Notes under the pieces: model-generated | The model's database searches: none | What the model was told of the DNA's origin: nothing | The model's input: the letters and a program-made list of their open reading frames with translations, nothing else | Source: Thermodesulfobacteriota bacterium | Lineage (GTDB): Bacteria; Desulfobacterota_D; UBA1144; Nemesobacterales; JAJCZQ01 | NCBI GenBank assembly: GCA_965203965.1 | Contig: CBDBDR010000017.1 | Coordinates: 480,001-544,000, forward strand | DNA: 64,000 nt | Direction: 5' to 3' | Program-made: the position numbers and the translations under genes | In this document: positions 15,283-63,447 of the stretch, piece after piece | Layout of the letters: each line of letters begins with the position of its first letter | Numbering within the stretch: position 1 is the stretch's first letter

Positions 15283-15356
15283 CGTCCCCGAGAGGATTCG
15301 AACCTCCGACCCCAAGATTAGGAATCTTGTGCTCTATCCTGCTGAGCTACGGGGAC
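15283..15356 (-). tRNA. tRNA-Arg(CCT)
   Basis: Minus strand GTCCCCGTAGCTCAGCAGGATAGAGCA-CAAGA-TTCCTAA-TCTTG-GGGTC-GGAGGTTCGAATCCTCT-CGGGGACG; CCA not encoded. Confidence 0.96.
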
Positions 15357-15435: not shown

Positions 15436-15518
15436 GCCGAAGTGGTGGAATTGGTAGACACGCTATCTTGAGGGGGTAGTGCCCGTAGGGCGTGGGAGTT
15501 CGAGTCTCCCCTTCGGCA
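15436..15518 (+). tRNA. tRNA-Leu(GAG)
   Basis: GCCGAAGTGGTGGAATTGGTAGACACG-CTATC-TTGAGGG-GGTAG, long variable arm, GGGAGTTCGAGTCTCCC, CTTCGGCA; CCA not encoded. Confidence 0.96.
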
Positions 15519-17771: not shown

Positions 17772-18545
17772 ATGGGGACACCCGCAATTGTTTTTATACT
17801 GATTATTGGACTAATAGTTTTTTCGGGCATTAGAGTGCTGTATGAATATGAAAGAGGGGTTATATTCAGACTCGGAAGATTAGCCGGGACAAAGGGACCG
17901 GGATTTAAATGGATCATTCCGGGTATAGATAAGATGTTGAAGATAAGCCTACGAGTAATTACAATGGACGTGCCTCCTCAGGATGTAATTACAAAAGATA
18001 ATGTATCGGTAAAAGTAAATGCAGTTGTTTATTTCAGAGTGATGGAGCCGGAAAAAGCAGTTGTACAAGTAGAAAATTATCTTTATGCAACATCTCAATT
18101 AGCACAAACAACTCTGAGAAGCGTGTTGGGTCAGGTTGAACTTGACGAACTGTTGGCAGAGAGAGAAACACTGAACCTGAAACTTCAGGACGTTCTTGAC
18201 AAACAGACGGATGCATGGGGAATTAAGGTTACTCTTGTAGAGGTAAAATATGTTGATCTGCCTCAGGAAATGCAGAGAGCAATGGCTCGTCAGGCAGAAG
18301 CAGAGAGAGAAAGAAGAGCAAAGGTTATAGCTGCTGAGGGTGAATATCAGGCATCAACAAAGCTCTCAGAGGCTTCCAATATTTTGTCTCGGAATCCTAT
18401 GGCACTTCAACTGCGATATTTACAAACAATGATAGAAATGTCCTCGGAAAAAAGCTCAACGATCGTCCTTCCGCTTCCAATAGATCTTCTGACGCCGTTT
18501 TTGGGTCTAAATAAGAACACCGGTGAAAAAGGACAAAACAGCTAA
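17772..18545 (+). CDS. Stomatin/SPFH (slipin) protein
   Basis: [40 protein letters not shown]; usual partner of nfeD. Confidence 0.95.
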
Positions 18546-18604
18546 TCAATCCGTGTGTAAATAGGTGTTCAGCAGGCTATAAAATTTTTTGAAAGGAAAG
18601 GTGT

Positions 18605-20446
18605 ATAGCAACGAGTAATATAATAAGGCTCTTTTTAATCTTTATTTGCCTCTTTGCCATTTCGTGTACAAGATCTGAGGCTCAGAGTGAAGATACAAGT
18701 AACAAAGAAACATCCGGTGGGTGGTTAATCTACCATCTGTCGTCCGAACCTGCAACTTTGAACCCAATAACCGCTACGGATATTTATGAGTCAATAATAA
18801 ACCGTAACATTTATGAAACTCTTACAAAAAGAGATAATAAGACTCTTGATCTCAAACCTCTTCTTGCAGAATCTTGGGAAATATCTGCTGATAAGCTGAG
18901 ATACAAATTTAAATTAAAGTCAAATATTAAATGGCAAGACGGAATACCGTTCACTTCCAAGGACGTTGTCTTTTCATATAAATCTATAATAAATCCAAGT
19001 GTTGACGCACCACATCTAAGAAACTACTATAAAGACATAATTGACGTAAAAGCCATCAACGACCATACGGTTGAGTTTATTTATTCCAAGCCTTATTTCC
19101 TCGCTCTTGAGTTTTGTGGGGGAATGCCCATAGTTCCAAGCCACCTGTTTAACAAGAAAGATATAACCCTTCCTGAGATCGGTGAAGGAATAAAGCAAGC
19201 CTCAGTTATAAGCGTCTTTATATCTCATGGAGACTCAATACAAAAGGAACAGCCGGTAATAGAAATAGAGACAGACAAGGCTGCTATTGAACTTCCATCC
19301 CCCTATGATGGAACAGTCAGTGAGGTGGCTGTAAAAGTAGGTGATACCATAGGTATTGGGCAACTCATAGCAAAAGTTAATAAAGATTTCAATAAAAATC
19401 CCAATGGGAGAAAACCCATTGGCACCGGCCCGTACAAATTTTCAAAGTGGAATACAGGTAGTGAAGTGGTGCTTGAAAGAAATGAAAATTACTGGGGAGA
19501 AAAACCGAAACTGCAAAAAATTGTTTTTAAGATAATAAACGACAGGACAGTGGCTTTCCAAGTTTTAAAAAGAGGTGATCTGGACTATTACGGACTTACC
19601 CCGATCCAGTGGGACAGACAAAGCAATACCAGGTCATTTAAAGAAAAATTCAATAAATACAGATATTTCAGACCCAACTATAGCTTTATTGGCTGGAATA
19701 TGAACAAACCTTACTTCAAAGATAAAAAAGTCAGAACCGCAATGACTCACCTGCTGGATAGGGAGCTTATACTGAACAAAATACTTCTTGGTCTGGGCGC
19801 AATCATCACCAATCCTTTCTACATAAACAGCCCAGAATATGATAAGTCCATTCAGCACTTAAATTTTGATCCTGAAAAAGCACGGAAATTACTGGACGAA
19901 GCAGGTTGGATAGACCATGATAATGACGGTGTGAGGGATAGGAATGGGGTTAAGTTTGAATTTGAATTTCTTTTACCTAGTGGTTCAGAAACCGGCGAGA
20001 AAATAGCAACAATATTAAAGGAAGAACTTGATAAAACCGGCATAGTTATGAAAATACGCAAAACGGAGTGGGCAGTGTTCACCACAAGGTTGAATGAGCG
20101 AAGATTTGATGCTGTAACGCTTGGTTGGAGCATGGGCGTTGAGTCCGACCCATACCAGATATGGAGCTCAACCCAAGCTGAGAGTGGCTCCAATTTTATC
20201 GGATTCAAAAATAAAAAAGCCGATGAATTAATCAGCAAAGCAAGGCGGGAGTTTGACAGGAAGAAAAGGATTGATCTATACCAGAAATTCGCCAAAATAG
20301 TTCACAAAGAACAACCATACACCTTTCTTTTCTGTAGTGAGTCAACGGTTGCTGTAAACAACAGGTTCAAAAACGTAACAGTCTATCCTCTGGGACTTGA
20401 TCCAGTTGAGTGGTATATCCCAAAATCACTTCAGAAATACTATTAG
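18605..20446 (+). CDS. Opp/Dpp-family (SBP_bac_5) substrate-binding lipoprotein with an inserted lipoyl domain
   Basis: EPATLNP, LAESWEIS, WQDG.PFT..DV.FS, PIGTGPYKF, A..LL.EAGW. The frame extends upstream of the listed TTG (18758) through a lipoprotein signal (IIRLFLIFICLFAISC) to an in-frame TGA at 18590, so the start is placed at ATA 18605 (uncertain). Confidence 0.88.
   Translation: MATSNIIRLFLIFICLFAISCTRSEAQSEDTSNKETSGGWLIYHLSSEPATLNPITATDIYESIINRNIYETLTKRDNKTLDLKPLLAESWEISADKLRYKFKLKSNIKWQDGIPFTSKDVVFSYKSIINPSVDAPHLRNYYKDIIDVKAINDHTVEFIYSKPYFLALEFCGGMPIVPSHLFNKKDITLPEIGEGIKQASVISVFISHGDSIQKEQPVIEIETDKAAIELPSPYDGTVSEVAVKVGDTIGIGQLIAKVNKDFNKNPNGRKPIGTGPYKFSKWNTGSEVVLERNENYWGEKPKLQKIVFKIINDRTVAFQVLKRGDLDYYGLTPIQWDRQSNTRSFKEKFNKYRYFRPNYSFIGWNMNKPYFKDKKVRTAMTHLLDRELILNKILLGLGAIITNPFYINSPEYDKSIQHLNFDPEKARKLLDEAGWIDHDNDGVRDRNGVKFEFEFLLPSGSETGEKIATILKEELDKTGIVMKIRKTEWAVFTTRLNERRFDAVTLGWSMGVESDPYQIWSSTQAESGSNFIGFKNKKADELISKARREFDRKKRIDLYQKFAKIVHKEQPYTFLFCSESTVAVNNRFKNVTVYPLGLDPVEWYIPKSLQKYY
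19154..19378 (+). other. In-frame lipoyl domain within the substrate-binding protein
   Basis: KKDITLPEIGEGIKQASVISVFISHGDSIQKEQPVIEIETDKAAIELPSPYDGTVSEVAVKVGDTIGIGQLIAKV; candidate lipoyl-Lys codon at 19277-19279. Confidence 0.93.
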
Positions 20447-20800
20447 AAAGTTTGTTGGAGCATCCAGAACCTGTAGTCTCGCCATTTAGAAAACGGTAAA
20501 TCTGACTTTAATATCCCTCAACAGCTCACTATCACACCCGATCCGCATGCCATCAATGAAAATCCCACGTTATAGTAGGATAATTGTTTGTAGGTTCCAA
20601 TACTTATCATCCCCTCGACACAAGGTTGATATGATCGTCATAATACAATCTAATCTATAAAACTTATCGCATAGAGTAAATATGATATATTATAGAGTTC
20701 AAAGTTTGTTCTGTCTCATTTACACTTACAGTTCACCTCAACAAGTTAGTTTAAATATGAATATGAAATGATAATTATTCTTCAATAATTACAATAAGTT

Positions 20801-21793
20801 ATGAAAGACTATTTAATTAAAAGGTTTATCTTATTGATTCCAACGATTCTCGGAATAACCATCATAACGTTTTGTATAATCCAACTTGCTCCCGGTAGTC
20901 CCATCCAGCAGAAACTAGGAATTGATGAAGGAATTAAAGCTGAGTCCATCACAAAGGACATAATAGAGCAGACAAAAAAATTGTATGGTTTGGATAAACC
21001 CATACACGAAAGATATATCATCTGGCTGAAACAAATCATAACATTGGATTTTGGCAATTCATACAAAGACCACAGACCTGTTATTGATAAGATTGCCGAA
21101 AGGCTTCCTGTTACGCTGGTTTTAAACTTTCTTTCGATTTTTTTTATATACATTATTTCAATACCACTGGGTGTCTATTCCGCAGTCAGGCAAGGGACGG
21201 TAACAGAAAGGCTGACGACATTCTTGCTGTTTATACTTTATTCAATCCCCAGTTTCTGGATGGCAATGATACTGATATTCTTTCTAGGTGGTGGGGAGTT
21301 TTGGAACGTTTTCCCGGTTTACGGTATTTCTTCACAAGGAGCTGAAAATTACAGTTTTGCAGGGAGAGTGCTGGATTTCCTTTGGCACATTATACTCCCG
21401 GTCTTTTGTCTGACTTATGCAGGACTCGCATCGCTTTCACGATTTCAGAAGGGAAGTCTGCTTGAAGTGCTTAGAGAAGACTATATAAGAACTGCAAAGA
21501 GCAAGGGACTTGATGAGAGAAAAATTCTATTTAAGCACGCTTTGAGAAATTCCCTGATACCCATTATTACAATTTTGAGTGCAATACTTCCTGCACTTAT
21601 AGGGGGTAGCGTCATTATTGAGACAATGTTTTCTATTCCCGGTATAGGCAGGCTAGGTTTTGAAGCCATATTGTCTCGTGATTATCCCGTTATAATGGCA
21701 ATTGCGACAATTTCAGCTTTCCTGACCCTTTTGGGAATACTGATCTCAGATATAGCCTATGTGTTTGTTGACCCGAGAATAAGTTTTGATTAA
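20801..21793 (+). CDS. Peptide ABC transporter permease, OppB/DppB type
   Basis: YGLDKP, DFGNS, IAERLPVT, EDYIRTAKSKGL EAA loop, RDYPVI, DPRI. Confidence 0.94.
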   Translation: MKDYLIKRFILLIPTILGITIITFCIIQLAPGSPIQQKLGIDEGIKAESITKDIIEQTKKLYGLDKPIHERYIIWLKQIITLDFGNSYKDHRPVIDKIAERLPVTLVLNFLSIFFIYIISIPLGVYSAVRQGTVTERLTTFLLFILYSIPSFWMAMILIFFLGGGEFWNVFPVYGISSQGAENYSFAGRVLDFLWHIILPVFCLTYAGLASLSRFQKGSLLEVLREDYIRTAKSKGLDERKILFKHALRNSLIPIITILSAILPALIGGSVIIETMFSIPGIGRLGFEAILSRDYPVIMAIATISAFLTLLGILISDIAYVFVDPRISFD

Positions 21794-21801
21794 AAAACGC
21801 C

Positions 21802-22797
21802 ATGAATAATGAAAGTTCAGGATACTGGAAAACAGTCTGGAGAGAGTTCAAAAAGGACAGAATGGCTTTGGCTGCTCTGGTTTTCATTGCTTTACTGGGA
21901 TTTATTGCAGTTTTTCAGGATTTTATTGCGGGCAACAAACCGATCCTGCTCATAGAAAACGGGAAGTTTTACACCCCTGCCGTATTAAATTATCCTGAAA
22001 TAAGCAGCTTTGGATCTAAAGAAGCATACATGGGGAAAAAAGATACATTTACAATATTTCCACCTTTCGCACATAGCCCAACTGAGAATGACCTTCATGC
22101 CATATTGGAAGCACCATCTATAAAACATCCGTTCGGGACGGATGACAGGGGCAGAGACGTGCTGAGTAGGATGATCTACGGAACAAGGGTTTCTCTTTCA
22201 ATCGGTTTTATAGCAGTGGGAATATCCACGTTGATCGGGATAATTCTGGGTGCGACAGCCGGTTATTATGGTGGAACAACAGATTTTATCATATCAAGAT
22301 TATTTGAAATAATGATCACGTTTCCCGTCTTTTTTCTGATACTTACAATTCTTGCATTCAGCAACCCGAGTATATACAACATTATGATAGTAATTGGTCT
22401 TACAAGCTGGACCGGGATAGCAAGACTTGTCAGAGGTGAATTCCTGAAATTCAGAAATTTTGCATTTGTGGAAGGAGCAAGAGCACTTGGTGGTAGCAAC
22501 CTGAGAATAATATTCAGGCACATAATGCCAAATTCCCTTGCCCCAGTTCTTGTAAGTGCCACATTTGGGATTGCCGGTGCAATTTTGGTTGAATCATCAC
22601 TCAGTTTTCTGGGATTTGGTGTGCCTCCACCCGAACCGAGTTGGGGAGATACGCTTTCACAGTCCCAAAAGTATGTTGATTTTGCATGGTGGCTTGTATT
22701 GTTTCCCGGTCTGTTGATATTCTTAACGATCACTTCACTGAATCTTGTAGGAGAAGGTTTTCGTAACGCAGTTGATCCAAAATTAAAGGACGTTTAA
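21802..22797 (+). CDS. Peptide ABC transporter permease, OppC/DppC type
   Basis: HPFGTDDRGRDVLSRMIYG, FVEGARALG, HIMPN, ESSLSFLG.G. Confidence 0.94.
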   Translation: MNNESSGYWKTVWREFKKDRMALAALVFIALLGFIAVFQDFIAGNKPILLIENGKFYTPAVLNYPEISSFGSKEAYMGKKDTFTIFPPFAHSPTENDLHAILEAPSIKHPFGTDDRGRDVLSRMIYGTRVSLSIGFIAVGISTLIGIILGATAGYYGGTTDFIISRLFEIMITFPVFFLILTILAFSNPSIYNIMIVIGLTSWTGIARLVRGEFLKFRNFAFVEGARALGGSNLRIIFRHIMPNSLAPVLVSATFGIAGAILVESSLSFLGFGVPPPEPSWGDTLSQSQKYVDFAWWLVLFPGLLIFLTITSLNLVGEGFRNAVDPKLKDV

Positions 22798-23780
22798 TGA
22801 ATTTAGAAAACGTATTAGAGATCAAGAATTTAAGTATAAGTTTTGCGGACAACAAGCAGAGATATGAGGTGGTAAGCAATGTCTCTTTGAACGTTCCTAA
22901 AGGGAAGATCGTATGTGTAGTTGGTGAAAGTGGCTGTGGAAAAACGGTAACCGCTCTTTCCATAATGGGACTACTTCCAATACCACCTGGGAACGTTGAT
23001 AATGGAAAGATATTTTTTGACGGCACAAACCTGCTTGAACTGTCTGAAAAAGAGCTTAGAAGCTACAGGGGAAACAGGTTATCAATGATATTTCAGGAGC
23101 CGATAAGTTCGTTTAACCCCGTTTTTACCATTGGAGATCAGATAGGAGAAGCATTAAGGATACACAGGTCCTTATCAAAGAATGAAGAAAAGGAAAAGGT
23201 GATTGAGTTGATGAAGACCGTCGGCATACCTGCCCCGGAAACAAGGATAAACAGCTATCCGCACGAATTAAGTGGAGGTATGTGTCAAAGAGCAATGATC
23301 GCTATGGCACTTTCATGTGATCCGGAGCTTTTGATAGCCGACGAACCAACTACTGCACTGGACGTAACTATTCAAGCGGAAATACTACGGCTGATTCTTG
23401 AATTGAGAGACAGGACAAAAATGGCAGTCTTGCTGATAACGCATGATCTTGGCATAGTGTCTGAAGTTGCCGATGAGGTGTATGTATTTTATGCGGGAAA
23501 AGTAGTTGAGAAAGGAACAAGAGATATGGTGTTTAATAAACCTTTACATCCATATACGGCTGGGCTTATGAGATCAATACCTTCTCTCAGTGAAAAAACT
23601 GAAAGTCTGCATACAATTCCGGGTTATATACCGTCTCCGAAAAATTTCCCAGTTTCCTGCAGATTTCAGGACAGATGTGAGTATGTCTTTGACAGATGCA
23701 GGGAAAAAGAACCTGGACTCGAAAAATTTGATGGCTCGCACTTTTCAGCATGCTACAGATCGGGTGAAATTTCAAAATAG
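22797..23780 (+). CDS. Peptide ABC transporter ATPase, OppD/DppD type
   Basis: GESGCGKT, YPHELSGG, IADEPTTALD, HPYT, C-terminal Cys motif. Confidence 0.95.
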   Translation: MNLENVLEIKNLSISFADNKQRYEVVSNVSLNVPKGKIVCVVGESGCGKTVTALSIMGLLPIPPGNVDNGKIFFDGTNLLELSEKELRSYRGNRLSMIFQEPISSFNPVFTIGDQIGEALRIHRSLSKNEEKEKVIELMKTVGIPAPETRINSYPHELSGGMCQRAMIAMALSCDPELLIADEPTTALDVTIQAEILRLILELRDRTKMAVLLITHDLGIVSEVADEVYVFYAGKVVEKGTRDMVFNKPLHPYTAGLMRSIPSLSEKTESLHTIPGYIPSPKNFPVSCRFQDRCEYVFDRCREKEPGLEKFDGSHFSACYRSGEISK

Positions 23781-23786
23781 TAAATA

Positions 23787-24755
23787 ATGAGCTTAGTTGA
23801 GATAAAAAATCTGAAGAAGCATTTCCCGGTAAAAAGTGGTCTATTTGCCAGAATAATCGATCACGTTAAAGCCGTTGATGGTATTGATTTGAATATAGAA
23901 AGAGGATCTACGCTTGGACTAGTTGGTGAAAGTGGTTGTGGAAAATCAACTCTTGGAAAGACAATAATAAGGCTTCTTGAACCAACTGACGGTCAGATAA
24001 TATTTGATGGCAGAGACATCACAAGGTTAAACACCTCTGCTTTAAGGCATATCAGAAAAAATATGCAGATGATATTCCAGAACCCCTATGGCTCTCTCAA
24101 TCCTAGAATGAACGTGAAAAGTCTTATTACCGAGGGTGTGGATATACACAACTTATACAGTAAGTCGGAAAGGGCAAGCATAGCAAGTGATCTACTAAAT
24201 AAGGTCGGTTTAGTAAACAGTTCTATGGACAAGTATCCACACGAGTTCAGTGGAGGACAAAGACAGAGAATAGCTATTGCTAGAGCACTTGCAGTGCAAC
24301 CTTCTTTTCTTATTTGTGATGAACCGATTTCTGCTCTCGATGTGTCAGTTCAGGCACAAATAATCAATTTGCTATCATCCCTTCAGCAAGAATTTAATTT
24401 AACCTATCTATTTATCTCACATGATCTCAGGGTTGTAAAACACATAAGCAACAAAGTGGCAGTGATGTATCTGGGTAAGATAGTGGAAATTGCAAGTAGT
24501 GAGGAAACTTACTCAAATCCACTTCACCCTTATACAAAGGTACTTATTTCTGCTATTCCCGATATAAAAAAGAAGAGCAAAAATACCGATAGAAAATACT
24601 CATTTATAACTGGGGAAGTTCCAAATCCGATCAATCCACCGATAGGATGCAGCTTTCACCCAAGGTGTCCAATAGCAGAAGAAAAATGTAAAACCACTGA
24701 ACCTAAACTGATTGATCACGGACAAGACCATAAGGTAGCGTGTCATTTGGTTTAA
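23787..24755 (+). CDS. Peptide ABC transporter ATPase, OppF/DppF type
   Basis: GESGCGKST, YPHEFSGGQRQR, CDEP.SALD, GC.FHPRCP, VACH. Confidence 0.95.
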   Translation: MSLVEIKNLKKHFPVKSGLFARIIDHVKAVDGIDLNIERGSTLGLVGESGCGKSTLGKTIIRLLEPTDGQIIFDGRDITRLNTSALRHIRKNMQMIFQNPYGSLNPRMNVKSLITEGVDIHNLYSKSERASIASDLLNKVGLVNSSMDKYPHEFSGGQRQRIAIARALAVQPSFLICDEPISALDVSVQAQIINLLSSLQQEFNLTYLFISHDLRVVKHISNKVAVMYLGKIVEIASSEETYSNPLHPYTKVLISAIPDIKKKSKNTDRKYSFITGEVPNPINPPIGCSFHPRCPIAEEKCKTTEPKLIDHGQDHKVACHLV

Positions 24756-53427: not shown

Positions 53428-53480
53428 GGCAGAGCCAGCAATCTATGATTCCCTCTTTTATTGCTACCCCGTTGGAGATA

Positions 53481-53531
53481 CTACCCCGTCATTGCCTAAC
53501 GGCAATGCCACCCCTTCTGAGAAGGGGAATT
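53481..53531 (+). repeat. REP-like double-hairpin element, copy 1
   Basis: CTACCCCGTC-ATTGCC taac GGCAAT-GCCA-CCCCTTC tga GAAGGGG-AAT. Confidence 0.75.
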
Positions 53532-53588
53532 GACCGTTCCCATTTCCCTCCTACGGAGAGGCTCAGGCAACTCCTAACAAAGCAGTCC

Positions 53589-53636
53589 ATTCCCCTCCTG
53601 TGGAGGGGTGGCAGTCCAAAAGGACTGACGGGGTGG
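53589..53636 (-). repeat. REP-like double-hairpin element, copy 2 (inverted)
   Basis: Reverse complement CCACCCCGTC-AGTCC tttt GGACT-GCCA-CCCCTCC aca GGAGGGG-AAT. Confidence 0.75.
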
Positions 53637-53835
53637 TCAATAAAAGGGGTAAGTCCATCCTGCTTCGCATTCCTAAACACGAGCATTACGTTGATTATTG
53701 ACCCTTTAAATGGGATTTAAACAGTGTTTAACAAGGGATTATTCCTCACTTATGCCTTGTGTCAGGAAAAATTAAATGATAATAAAATGTTTTGTCTAAA
53801 AACTTAAATGAAAAACAGATTATTTAAGGCAAGTT

Positions 53836-61285: not shown

Positions 61286-61969
61286 TTATTCGTAACTGAA
61301 TAGCCTCTTTTCTTTTTCTATGACTTCAGTATATCCAAACTTGCCGATAAACTTCTCTGCAACAACTCCACTAACAAGATCCGTTCCTACCAGTTCTCCA
61401 CGATCACCACACTGTTCTATGGACGTCATCTTAACGTTATTTATTCCGCATGGGATCATTAGGTCAAAAAAATCAAGGTCTGTATTTACGTTAACTGCAA
61501 GCCCGTGATAGGTAACCCATCTTTTTATTCCCACCCCAATAGATGCGATCTTACATCCTTTTGTCCAGACCCCAGTAAGTCCTTCTATCACTTGCCCTTC
61601 AATACCAAATTCCTTAAGAGCTTCTATAATTATCTTTTCCAAGTCCCTTATATACTTATGGACGTCTCTTACATGGTCATTTAGATTGATGATAGGGTAA
61701 CAGACAACCTGTCCGGGACCATGGAACGTTATATCTCCACCTCTGCTTACTTCAAAAAATTCTATATTCTTACTTTTTAGATAGCTCTCGGAAATAATGA
61801 GATTAGACCTATTGCCCCCCCTACCGATCGTTATGGTCGGCGGATGCTCAATCAACAGAAAAGAATCGTTTACCTCGTTATTGATCCTTTTCTCAAGGAG
61901 TTTGAGTTGCAAGTCCATCCCATTTTTGTAACTCATTACCCCAAGACGGTATACATCAAGTGTCTTCAT
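61286..61969 (-). CDS. lipB: Octanoyltransferase LipB
   Basis: EHPP..T.G, RGGDITFHGPGQ, KIASIG, HG.A.N, PCG. Confidence 0.96.
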   Translation of the reverse strand: MKTLDVYRLGVMSYKNGMDLQLKLLEKRINNEVNDSFLLIEHPPTITIGRGGNRSNLIISESYLKSKNIEFFEVSRGGDITFHGPGQVVCYPIINLNDHVRDVHKYIRDLEKIIIEALKEFGIEGQVIEGLTGVWTKGCKIASIGVGIKRWVTYHGLAVNVNTDLDFFDLMIPCGINNVKMTSIEQCGDRGELVGTDLVSGVVAEKFIGKFGYTEVIEKEKRLFSYE

Positions 61970-62013: not shown

Positions 62014-63447
62014 TTACAGGTGTCGCGTTCTACCCAAAGTGCCCAATGCAGCTTCCATAACTGCCTCGGAAAGAGTAGGGTGGGCATGAGATGTGTATGC
62101 AATTTCAAGTGGTGTAGCTTCAAGGGAAGACGCCAATCCAAGTTCGGCTATTAACTCAGTAGCTCCGCTGCCAATAATGTGGGCACCGAGTATTTCATTG
62201 GTCTTTTTATCAGATAGTATTTTCACAAAACCTTCCGTATCACCTACTGCAACTGCTTTACCGGCGGCTTTAAACGGGAACTTTCCAACCGAGTAATCAA
62301 AACCCTGTTCCTTTGCCTGCTTTTCAGTAAGTCCGATCATACCAACTTCAGGCTGACAATAAACGCAGCCCGGTATCCTGTTGTAGTGAACTTTACTTTT
62401 TTTTATCCCATTCATTATTTCTACGGCAACGACACCCTCTTCAGAGGCTTTATGTGCCAACAGAGGGGGGCCTATAACGTCACCAATGGCATAAATACCG
62501 TTTTTAGTGGTCATATAATCCTTATCTGTTTTGATAAAACCGACACTGTCAAGTTCAACACCAACTTCACCCAGCCCCAAGCCGTCTGATTTGCCGTAAT
62601 GACTAAAAGAAGATAGAGCAGTATTTGCAACTGCCTTCCGCCCGATCGCAACCAGTACCAAAGAGGTTTTTATATTTTCTTCCTCACCTGTTTCTATGTC
62701 TTGAACGGTTACAGTTGCCGAGGTTCTTTGCTTTTTTATGGATTTATACTTGGTTCCACAACGTATTTCCACGCCATGTCGCTTAAATACCTTTTGAAGT
62801 TCTATTGCAACCTCTTCGTCTGCGCCTGGGATAATATTTTTTTCCATTTCAACGATCGTAACTTTACTGCCAAACGAGTTGTAAACATAAGCAAATTCAA
62901 CCCCGATGTAACCGCCACCGATGATCACCACGGATTTGGGAATTTCACGGTTCATAATTGCCTCATCACTGGTCATAACTACTTTGCGGTCTATTTCCAA
63001 CCCGGGGATCGTCCTTGGAACCGATCCGGTGGCTATCAGTATTTTGTCCGTCTGGATTTCAAGGTTTTCCTTGTTAAGAACTGCCACTTGGTTTTCTTTT
63101 ATGATCTTGCCAACCCCTTTCAACAAAGTGATATTGTTTTTCCCAAGTAAAAACTCAACACCTTTGTTCAAAGTTGTTGACGCATCTCGGCTCTTACCCA
63201 CTACTTTTGAGTAATCGTATGAGATCCCGCTTGTTTTGATACCATATTTCTCCGAATTGATAATGTAGTTGTAAACTTCTGCGCATTTCAGTATTGCCTT
63301 GGAAGGTATGCACCCCCAGTTTAGACAGACACCTCCAGGCTTGTCTCTCTCTATCACTGCGACATTCATACCGAGTTGTGCTGCACGTATTGCCGCTACG
63401 TAGCCACCCGGTCCGGATCCTATAATAGTTAAGTCAAATTTTTTCAT
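62014..63447 (-). CDS. lpdA: Dihydrolipoamide dehydrogenase (E3)
   Basis: GSGPGGY, GGVCLNWGCIPSK, GGGYIG.E, LAHKA..EG, HAHPTLSE. Confidence 0.97.
   Translation of the reverse strand: MKKFDLTIIGSGPGGYVAAIRAAQLGMNVAVIERDKPGGVCLNWGCIPSKAILKCAEVYNYIINSEKYGIKTSGISYDYSKVVGKSRDASTTLNKGVEFLLGKNNITLLKGVGKIIKENQVAVLNKENLEIQTDKILIATGSVPRTIPGLEIDRKVVMTSDEAIMNREIPKSVVIIGGGYIGVEFAYVYNSFGSKVTIVEMEKNIIPGADEEVAIELQKVFKRHGVEIRCGTKYKSIKKQRTSATVTVQDIETGEEENIKTSLVLVAIGRKAVANTALSSFSHYGKSDGLGLGEVGVELDSVGFIKTDKDYMTTKNGIYAIGDVIGPPLLAHKASEEGVVAVEIMNGIKKSKVHYNRIPGCVYCQPEVGMIGLTEKQAKEQGFDYSVGKFPFKAAGKAVAVGDTEGFVKILSDKKTNEILGAHIIGSGATELIAELGLASSLEATPLEIAYTSHAHPTLSEAVMEAALGTLGRTRHL

Follow-up and report, generated by a model that had tools for sequence, protein, structure and literature searches.

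A lipoyl domain matching the resident pyruvate dehydrogenase E2, nested within an ABC substrate-binding lipoprotein of a Thermodesulfobacteriota bacterium

A complete lipoyl domain lies inside a family-5 binding lipoprotein

In the genome of a Thermodesulfobacteriota bacterium, a gene for a family-5 (Opp/Dpp/App-type) substrate-binding protein (SBP) of the ATP-binding cassette (ABC) transporters carries an entire lipoyl domain nested within its SBP sequence, and this domain is nearly identical to that of the organism's own pyruvate dehydrogenase (PDH) E2. The gene occupies positions 18605..20446 (+ strand; 613 codons from ATA 18605) of the window, by which we mean the whole stretch of 64,000 nucleotides (nt) analysed here (contig CBDBDR010000017.1, positions 480,001 to 544,000; assembly GCA_965203965.1). 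Positions are those of the window unless a contig is named.

The Pfam profile SBP_bac_5 (PF00496) matches across the protein at 2.3e-96 (323.5 bits against a cut-off of 32.4; residues 32-473, counted on the 562-residue form of the protein discussed below). Inside this match, Biotin_lipoyl (PF00364) is found at 3.7e-21, with 75.2 bits against a cut-off of 22.1 and profile positions 2-72 of 73 covered. A sequence-only reading of the window had proposed a complete lipoyl domain nested in a clean frame in an Opp/Dpp lipoprotein, and the domain scan, with PF00364 within PF00496, bears this out; the 75 residues delimited in that reading score 80.8 bits (6.6e-23) when taken alone. The insert also matches the E2 lipoyl domains of solved structures (E. 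coli-type 7b9k at 1.3e-33, and also 1lab and 1qjo), and the AAG lysine codon of its ETDKA motif, correctly placed in the earlier reading at 19277..19279 (+), falls opposite the lysine of the DKA turn in solved E2 lipoyl domains (7b9k). Both the full-length PF00364 match above the gathering score and the lysine in a DKA turn are thus those of a lipoyl domain, and the likeness to the AceF-type domains of PDH E2 (7b9k, 1lab, 1qjo) includes full length and an intact ETDKA turn. Unlike those domains, the insert is not an E2 tether: it joins no peripheral-subunit-binding domain or catalytic core (PF02817 and PF00198 are present in the resident E2 and not here), has SBP_bac_5 sequence on both flanks, and is instead embedded in a protein predicted to be exported, to a compartment without E1, E2 or E3 partners, so that its modification is doubtful. 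Two profiles of periplasmic adaptors stayed under their cut-offs for the insert alone (HlyD_3, 20.3 against 22.2 bits; Biotin_lipoyl_2, 20.2 against 29.8 bits).

Across the insert the protein reads HLFNKK / DITLPEIGEG...LIAKVNK / DFNKNP, and the corresponding ortholog loop consists of HLF, three residues and DFNKNP, the three residues being SGK, DKG and ENG in three related genomes (G001, G002 and G004, respectively). None of 43 aligned orthologous proteins has residues opposite residues 190-255 of the window protein, and the alignment gap in the nearest ortholog (P0018) corresponds to residues 185-259. Because ortholog residues are lacking there and the gap in the nearest ortholog has these limits, we place the insert, in frame relative to all orthologs, at 19160..19384 (+; 225 nt, 75 codons). 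Comparison with the orthologs and with the donor described below puts the borders given in the sequence-only reading, 19154..19378, 6 nt too far to the left.

The donor is the resident pyruvate dehydrogenase E2 gene

When aligned with the genome's own PDH E2, the insert is identical at 217 of 222 nt (97.7%), a match far beyond chance, and the earlier suggestion that the organism's own aceF was the donor holds. The copied stretch, 19160..19381 (+), spans E2 codons 3-76, that is, a complete lipoyl domain, and its counterpart lies 47 kb downstream of the insert on the same strand, at G000:C17:546268-546489 in the coordinates of the main contig. The E2 gene itself (G000:C17:546263-547675), just past the window's end, encodes a 470-residue acetyltransferase and sits between the E1 and E3 genes, in an E1-E2-E3 operon that begins at the window's end; its product matches TIGR01348 at 2.7e-137, yet remains under the cut-off of that family. 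A search of the genome against itself found one other copy of the lipoyl stretch, the one in E2, and in a self-comparison of the main contig the E2/SBP lipoyl pair is an isolated two-copy repeat. Since the domain is present in every E2 and in no orthologous SBP, the direction of transfer, from E2 to SBP, is clear.

The two copies differ at five positions over the 222 nt, of which three change an amino acid (I/V, S/N and V/I) and two are silent, leaving 71 of 74 residues identical. Polarised against E2 genes from four relatives, the resident E2 carries the derived state at three of these positions and the insert at one (N to S), and the fifth is ambiguous. The two copies agree at 72 of 74 third codon positions; the corresponding figure for this E2 against that of the nearest searched genus is 38 of 74, and the copy is, judged by these sites, recent relative to genus divergence.

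The junctions point to short-homology recombination

The insert is bordered by direct repeats of the hexamer AAAGAT, at 19157..19162 (+) on the left and 19382..19387 (+) on the right, which may represent a target-site duplication or microhomology. In the uninterrupted G001 ortholog AAA GAT occurs once at this place, and the donor segment in E2 is flanked by AATGAT on both sides. These junctions most likely stem from template switching at short homologies, or from illegitimate recombination, accompanied by a target duplication of 3-6 nt; they do not fit a transposon, an intron, an intein or homologous recombination. In the proposed mechanism, a stretch of 219-222 nt coding for the whole N-terminal lipoyl domain would have been copied out of the organism's own PDH E2 and inserted, with the frame kept, at a surface loop of three residues in the SBP, through microhomology-mediated template switching or illegitimate recombination that would have doubled the target hexamer AAAGAT.

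A hairpin with an 8-bp stem is found 17 nt 3' of the insertion point (19401..19422, no strand assigned), within the coding sequence for NPNGRKPIG. Its DNA fold of -8.6 kcal/mol (z -2.2) was equalled by 4 of 200 shuffles, and it may, speculatively, act as a replication pause site, a weak suggestion at best. A crude script check found no further domain-copy event, and no spanning open frame, among five other repeat segments. The same script found no open frame spanning a perfectly identical inverted pair of 1304 nt elsewhere on the main contig (G000:C17:370743-372046 and 590389-591692; 100% identical).

Contigs from public sequencing runs enter the insert from both sides

All or part of the stretch was present in 14 of 17 listed public runs from five studies, with the runs labelled as sponge metagenome, marine metatranscriptome or a coded organism, and four of them (X1, X3, X9 and X13) were compared as 31-mer contigs. 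At the left junction, contigs of X1 and X3 (two studies) that start in SBP sequence reach 19189 and thus cover 30 nt of the lipoyl stretch, which is the furthest that a 31-mer graph can go before the copies merge and one letter under the bridging rule of 31. At the right junction, contigs begin at 19346 (X1 and X13; 36 nt of lipoyl sequence) or at 19352 (X3; 30 nt) and continue into the SBP. The junctions that the sequence-only reading had singled out for mapping are thereby entered by contigs on the left (X1, X3) and on the right (X1, X3, X13), drawn from three DNA studies, while the E2 flanks are carried by separate E2-specific contigs that enter the repeat. The shared middle contig is deeper than its surroundings, at 66.5 versus ~49 in X1 and 42.2 versus 24-28 in X3, in line with two genuine copies.

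No joint skipping the insert, as expected of an insert-less form, was found in the contigs of the four runs, and contigs drop rare variants. Outside the repeat, differences from the window in up to 2.6 kb numbered none in X1 and X3, one in X9, and two in X13, where depth was low. Because the runs are nearly identical outside the repeat, the insertion appears to predate the divergence among the sampled populations. The RNA-library run X9 yielded contigs over 18400-19140, and its lipoyl-stretch contigs continue into the E2 flanks; none of its contigs crosses an SBP junction and none covers 19444-21000.

The nested architecture is apparently restricted to one lineage

We compared 40 relatives, labelled Candidatus Dadabacteria or Thermodesulfobacteriota in their sources, four of which belong to the same family and none to the same genus. 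An ortholog is present in 34 of the 40, and 33 of these are informative, the G003 contig beginning inside the gene. The insert is absent from all 33, in which the DNA matches to the N- and C-terminal parts meet directly (with an overlap of at most 9 nt or a gap of at most 6 nt).

Wider searches agree, within the matches listed, with the earlier statement that no periplasmic ABC binding protein is known to have a lipoyl domain. In a protein search of 5.8 billion clusters, the window protein alone combines PF00364 with PF00496 among 120 listed of 167 matches, and no locus among the best 80 of a metagenome collection or the best 80 of a genome collection covered both SBP flanks, junction peptides having been included in the patterns. 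The extended matches in those collections that were opened (L113, L038 and L162) are ordinary E2 genes; the partially extended matches L081, L154, L140, L159, L168 and L068 were left out. In a phmmer search with the junction segment against 1.84 billion representatives, the top 150 matches were all to lipoyl domains, with query ranges within 24-137, and its power is limited because multi-lipoyl proteins dominate the listed matches and weaker look-alike architectures could hide below them. The ESM Atlas gave weak SBP clusters only, with scores of at most 0.77. In the literature covered, to which most subscription journals do not belong, we found no lipoyl domain in a solute-binding or periplasmic protein and no insertion of a lipoyl domain. 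By these sequence comparisons the insertion is apparently unique to one lineage.

The host gene and its operon

The open frame extends between a TGA at 18590-18592 and the stop at 20444-20446. The closest solved relative of the outer protein is AppA of B. subtilis (1xoc, 2.9e-71), followed by 8efz, DppA and NikA, and the matches to solved peptide- and nickel-binding proteins are split in two, with one stretch on each side of the insert. None of the named equivalogs (OppA, DppA, NikA, Opp4A), any of which would point to a ligand, was reached in NCBIfam; the best, Opp4A, scored 263.4 bits where 650 are needed. A predicted signal peptide with the lipobox LFAIS-C occupies 18605..18667 (+; Cys codon 18665-18667), SC lipoboxes are found in the orthologs of G001, G002 and G004, and lgt and lspA genes, both with open frames, are present in the genome.

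The rest of the transporter operon follows at 20801..24755 (+), with all frames open: two BPD_transp_1 permease genes (20801-21793 and 21802-22797) and two genes for ABC ATPases with an oligo_HPY domain (22797-23780 and 23787-24755). Membership in family 5 is thus indicated both by the PF00496 match above the gathering score and by the gene's place beside two permease genes and two oligo_HPY ATPase genes. The protein resembles the cluster C SBPs (AppA 1xoc, OppA, DppA, NikA, MppA) in its full-length homology flanking the insert, its predicted lipoprotein signal and its operon with permeases and oligo_HPY ATPases; it departs from them in its ATA start and in a foreign domain of 75 residues, placed in a loop that is three residues long in every ortholog seen. 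The genome contains no second close copy of the binding protein, the next best being ~32% identical.

The SBP gene is separated from the first permease gene by a spacer of 355 nt (window 20447-20800), compared with 43-48 nt in the operons of G002 and G004. The spacer sequence occurs nowhere else in the genome and matches nothing in Rfam; in run X13 it carries a T>C change at 20563 and lacks 1 nt at 20573. An Rfam scan of 18400-20900 found nothing, and the promoters predicted by a promoter scan were no better than those in shuffles. In the nearest complete relative (L009; G001:C1:131407-135468), the orthologous SBP gene has no permease genes behind it; its downstream neighbour is an unrelated ATPase-like gene in convergent orientation, so the operon layout differs between genera.

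The start codon and the condition of the gene

No ATG, GTG or TTG is present in frame between the TGA at 18590-18592 and the lipobox, and the start codon under translation table 11 is ATA 18605, which follows by 7 nt an AAGGA (18593-18597) that resembles a Shine-Dalgarno (SD) sequence. This ATA aligns with the ATG of the G004 ortholog, with 21 residues up to the lipobox Cys in both; the orthologs of G001, G002 and G004 all begin with ATG. The letters of the start region are identical in the four public runs. A GTG at 18601 is one base out of frame and opens a frame of five codons only; a +1 frameshift from it was set aside, as the GAG-TAA slip offers no re-pairing. Also rejected was a start at TTG 18758, which gives the 562-residue form found in protein databases: it has no SD-like sequence, and the signal peptide and a conserved strand would be lost. 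In E. coli, AUA is reported to initiate at ~1-2% of the level of AUG (bioRxiv 10.1101/063800), and the ATA start therefore suggests either that the protein is probably made at a low level or that the gene is beginning to decay.

The 613 codons contain no stops or frameshifts, and 4.8% of single substitutions would create a stop. At 219 columns that are at least 95% conserved in the orthologs, the window protein deviates at four, one of them being K for a near-invariant G at the junction; it ranks 31st of 44, with 13 orthologs deviating more. With G002 and G004 as outgroups, it has accumulated 28 lineage-specific residue changes, compared with 20 in the G001 ortholog.

Fold tolerance and lipoylation of the nested domain

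A lipoyl domain is a flattened barrel in which the N and C termini lie together, opposite the lysine turn, as described in a review (PMC6270654). The sequence-only reading had argued that the two termini of the insert should be close, and this description backs it; adjacent termini also make the domain suited to insertion into a loop. For MppA, the domain limits given in PMC3173086 are 7-46/165-263/487-515, 264-486 and 47-164. Combined with alignments to OppA and DppA, they place the insertion site approximately 10 residues past the point where the extra domain returns to domain 1, and far from the hinge crossings at ~263 and ~486 (also approximate). Because the barrel is self-folding with adjacent ends, and the site is near a domain border and away from the hinges, the host protein with its insert probably still folds.

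Modification is a different matter. The lipB gene, encoding the cytoplasmic octanoyl/lipoyl transferase that modifies lipoyl domains (61286..61969, - strand; PF21948 at 1.3e-46; TIGR00214 at 167 bits against 83.55), and an lpdA-type gene (62014..63447, - strand) lie where the earlier reading had put them, and lipA is present elsewhere in the genome. In the portion of PMC2063957 that cites Jander et al. (1996), a biotinyl domain of the same fold, positioned on the periplasmic side of MalF, is described as modified only if it lingers in the cytosol. The PSBT biotinyl-domain sandwich and fusion reporters (Jander, Cronan and Beckwith 1996, per PMC2063957) share with the window protein the fold, the periplasmic position and a Sec-dependent protein, and predict a domain that is tolerated and unmodified unless export is slow; they differ from it in being laboratory constructs and in carrying a biotinyl rather than a lipoyl domain. 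By this analogy, and because the protein is predicted to be exported and LipB and LipA are cytoplasmic, the nested domain is most likely largely unmodified in the periplasm and would form no swinging arm.

One lipoyl domain that acts beyond the cytoplasm is that of S. aureus E2, which is released in lipoylated form and acts on TLR1/2 of the host, according to a review (PMC7545029). In that case lipoylation takes place in the cytoplasm, before release, and concerns the complete E2, with no transporter fusion and in an unrelated lineage.

In the periplasmic adaptors AcrA, MacA and HlyD, the same fold works unmodified as a packing or interaction module. Their lipoyl-like domains have no lysine motif and are ancient and interrupted by a hairpin, whereas the insert is a fresh E2 copy with the motif.

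Other features of the window

Two further features of the window were noted. At 53480-53643 are GC-rich palindromic units of ~55 nt that are part of a dispersed repeat family and resemble repetitive extragenic palindromic (REP) or miniature inverted-repeat transposable (MITE) elements, with copies on the main contig near C17:1014590, 1069269, 1099026 and 1440941. At 15436-15518, ARAGORN predicts a tRNA-Leu(gag) adjoining a tRNA-Arg(cct), where the Rfam search at gathering thresholds gave only the tRNA at 15283-15356.

Weighing the explanations

On balance we favour, with modest confidence, a young and lineage-specific domain insertion, carried as a tolerated and largely unlipoylated periplasmic passenger in a weakly started, probably low-level SBP. 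The sequence-only reading had offered three roles for the domain. A tethered redox or acyl arm and a lipoate or lipoyl-peptide scavenger are unlikely, because the insert is young, is seen in one lineage and sits in a protein predicted to be exported, away from the cytoplasmic LipB and LipA; its third option, an unmodified domain, is by analogy the most likely state, although such a domain is probably a passenger rather than a module that evolved for interactions. Several points count against this preference. Contigs of 31-mers cannot put both junctions on one molecule, which the assembly alone does, and the overlap at the left junction is 30 letters, not 31. The hexamer AAAGAT is common (114 matches in the window on both strands), so that its evidence carries moderate weight, and the microhomology is short. 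The case for folding, export, modification and ligand binding rests on sequence and analogy, and the mapping of the site to the domain border is an ungapped extrapolation from the alignments and from the MppA limits (PMC3173086). The insert has changed at one or two positions since copying, which fits constraint, and with it function, as easily as youth. The ATA start, finally, fits gene decay as well as low expression, and it is the starting point of another account, in which the insertion and an ATG-to-ATA change have inactivated the SBP or all but silenced it and the frame is open for lack of time, in a host-associated lineage under weak selection. We hold this early pseudogenisation to be a serious contender and yet doubtful. 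The ATA has no alternative in-frame start, is fixed in four runs and would initiate at the 1-2% of AUG cited above; 75 residues now occupy a loop of exactly three in all orthologs seen, next to the K that replaces a near-invariant G; and with two synonymous differences the elapsed time is too ill-defined to expect stops, given how few substitutions make one. Nevertheless, there are no stops or frameshifts to set beside it, 215 of 219 highly conserved columns are kept, a better record than that of 13 of the 43 orthologs, and the count of 28 lineage-specific changes versus 20 is no clear excess. The four downstream transporter genes are intact, the genome has no second close SBP copy, and RNA-library contigs cover 18573-19140, though DNA carry-over may account for these.

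Beside the tolerated passenger and the decaying gene stands the idea that the exported domain, lipoylated before export or in its apo form, was fixed in a sponge-associated lineage for an extracytoplasmic role, as a periplasmic dithiol or acyl arm, a docking or interaction module of the transporter, an aid in lipoate scavenging, or a vesicle-released, host-directed lipoyl-protein signal such as the S. aureus E2. The unmodified adaptor domains of the same fold are a precedent for the apo form. The domain is complete with its lysine motif intact, has one or two changes since the copy compared with three in the resident E2 domain, and is present wherever covered in runs of several studies with no insert-less form seen, in a genome that has LipB and LipA; the action of lipoylated S. 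aureus E2 on TLR1/2 (PMC7545029) provides a precedent for the signal. We nonetheless consider it improbable: the insert is confined to one lineage and missing from 33 of 33 informative orthologs, the counts of changes are too small to show selection, and the modifying enzymes are cytoplasmic while export normally outruns modification of this fold (PMC2063957). Moreover, it is not obvious that a diderm would expose a periplasmic lipoprotein to a host, and the start codon is weak, which speaks against a strongly selected product. Last, the very high identity to a gene 47 kb away and the merging of the repeat into one deeper contig in short-word assemblies invite the suspicion that E2 reads were chimerically joined into the SBP gene by assembly or sequencing error. 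The sequence-only reading had named identity to aceF with a coverage anomaly as the sign of such a chimera, and of these the identity is real. The chimera, in contrast, is very unlikely, because the copies have five fixed differences, which rule out a same-genome chimera, the sequence is back in the SBP frame once precisely 75 codons have passed, and in three DNA studies contigs specific to the SBP lead into the repeat from either flank; E2 contigs do likewise, and the depth fits two copies.

Implications

The components described here, a family-5 SBP and a domain insertion, are known, and the protein is a fresh combination of them and not a new kind of system. If the domain has taken on an extracytoplasmic role, this would be the first ABC binding protein to carry an exported lipoyl domain. 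The interest of the protein is in how it arose: nested-domain proteins are common, and the event that creates one can hardly ever be observed while its donor and recipient are both still identifiable, whereas in this fresh example the donor, the target site and the junction repeats can all be read. It thus offers a test case for lipoyl-domain modification during export and, more broadly, a natural experiment in the in-frame copying of domains in bacteria, in which domains and loops tolerate such insertions, and in the fate of a cofactor domain in the wrong compartment.

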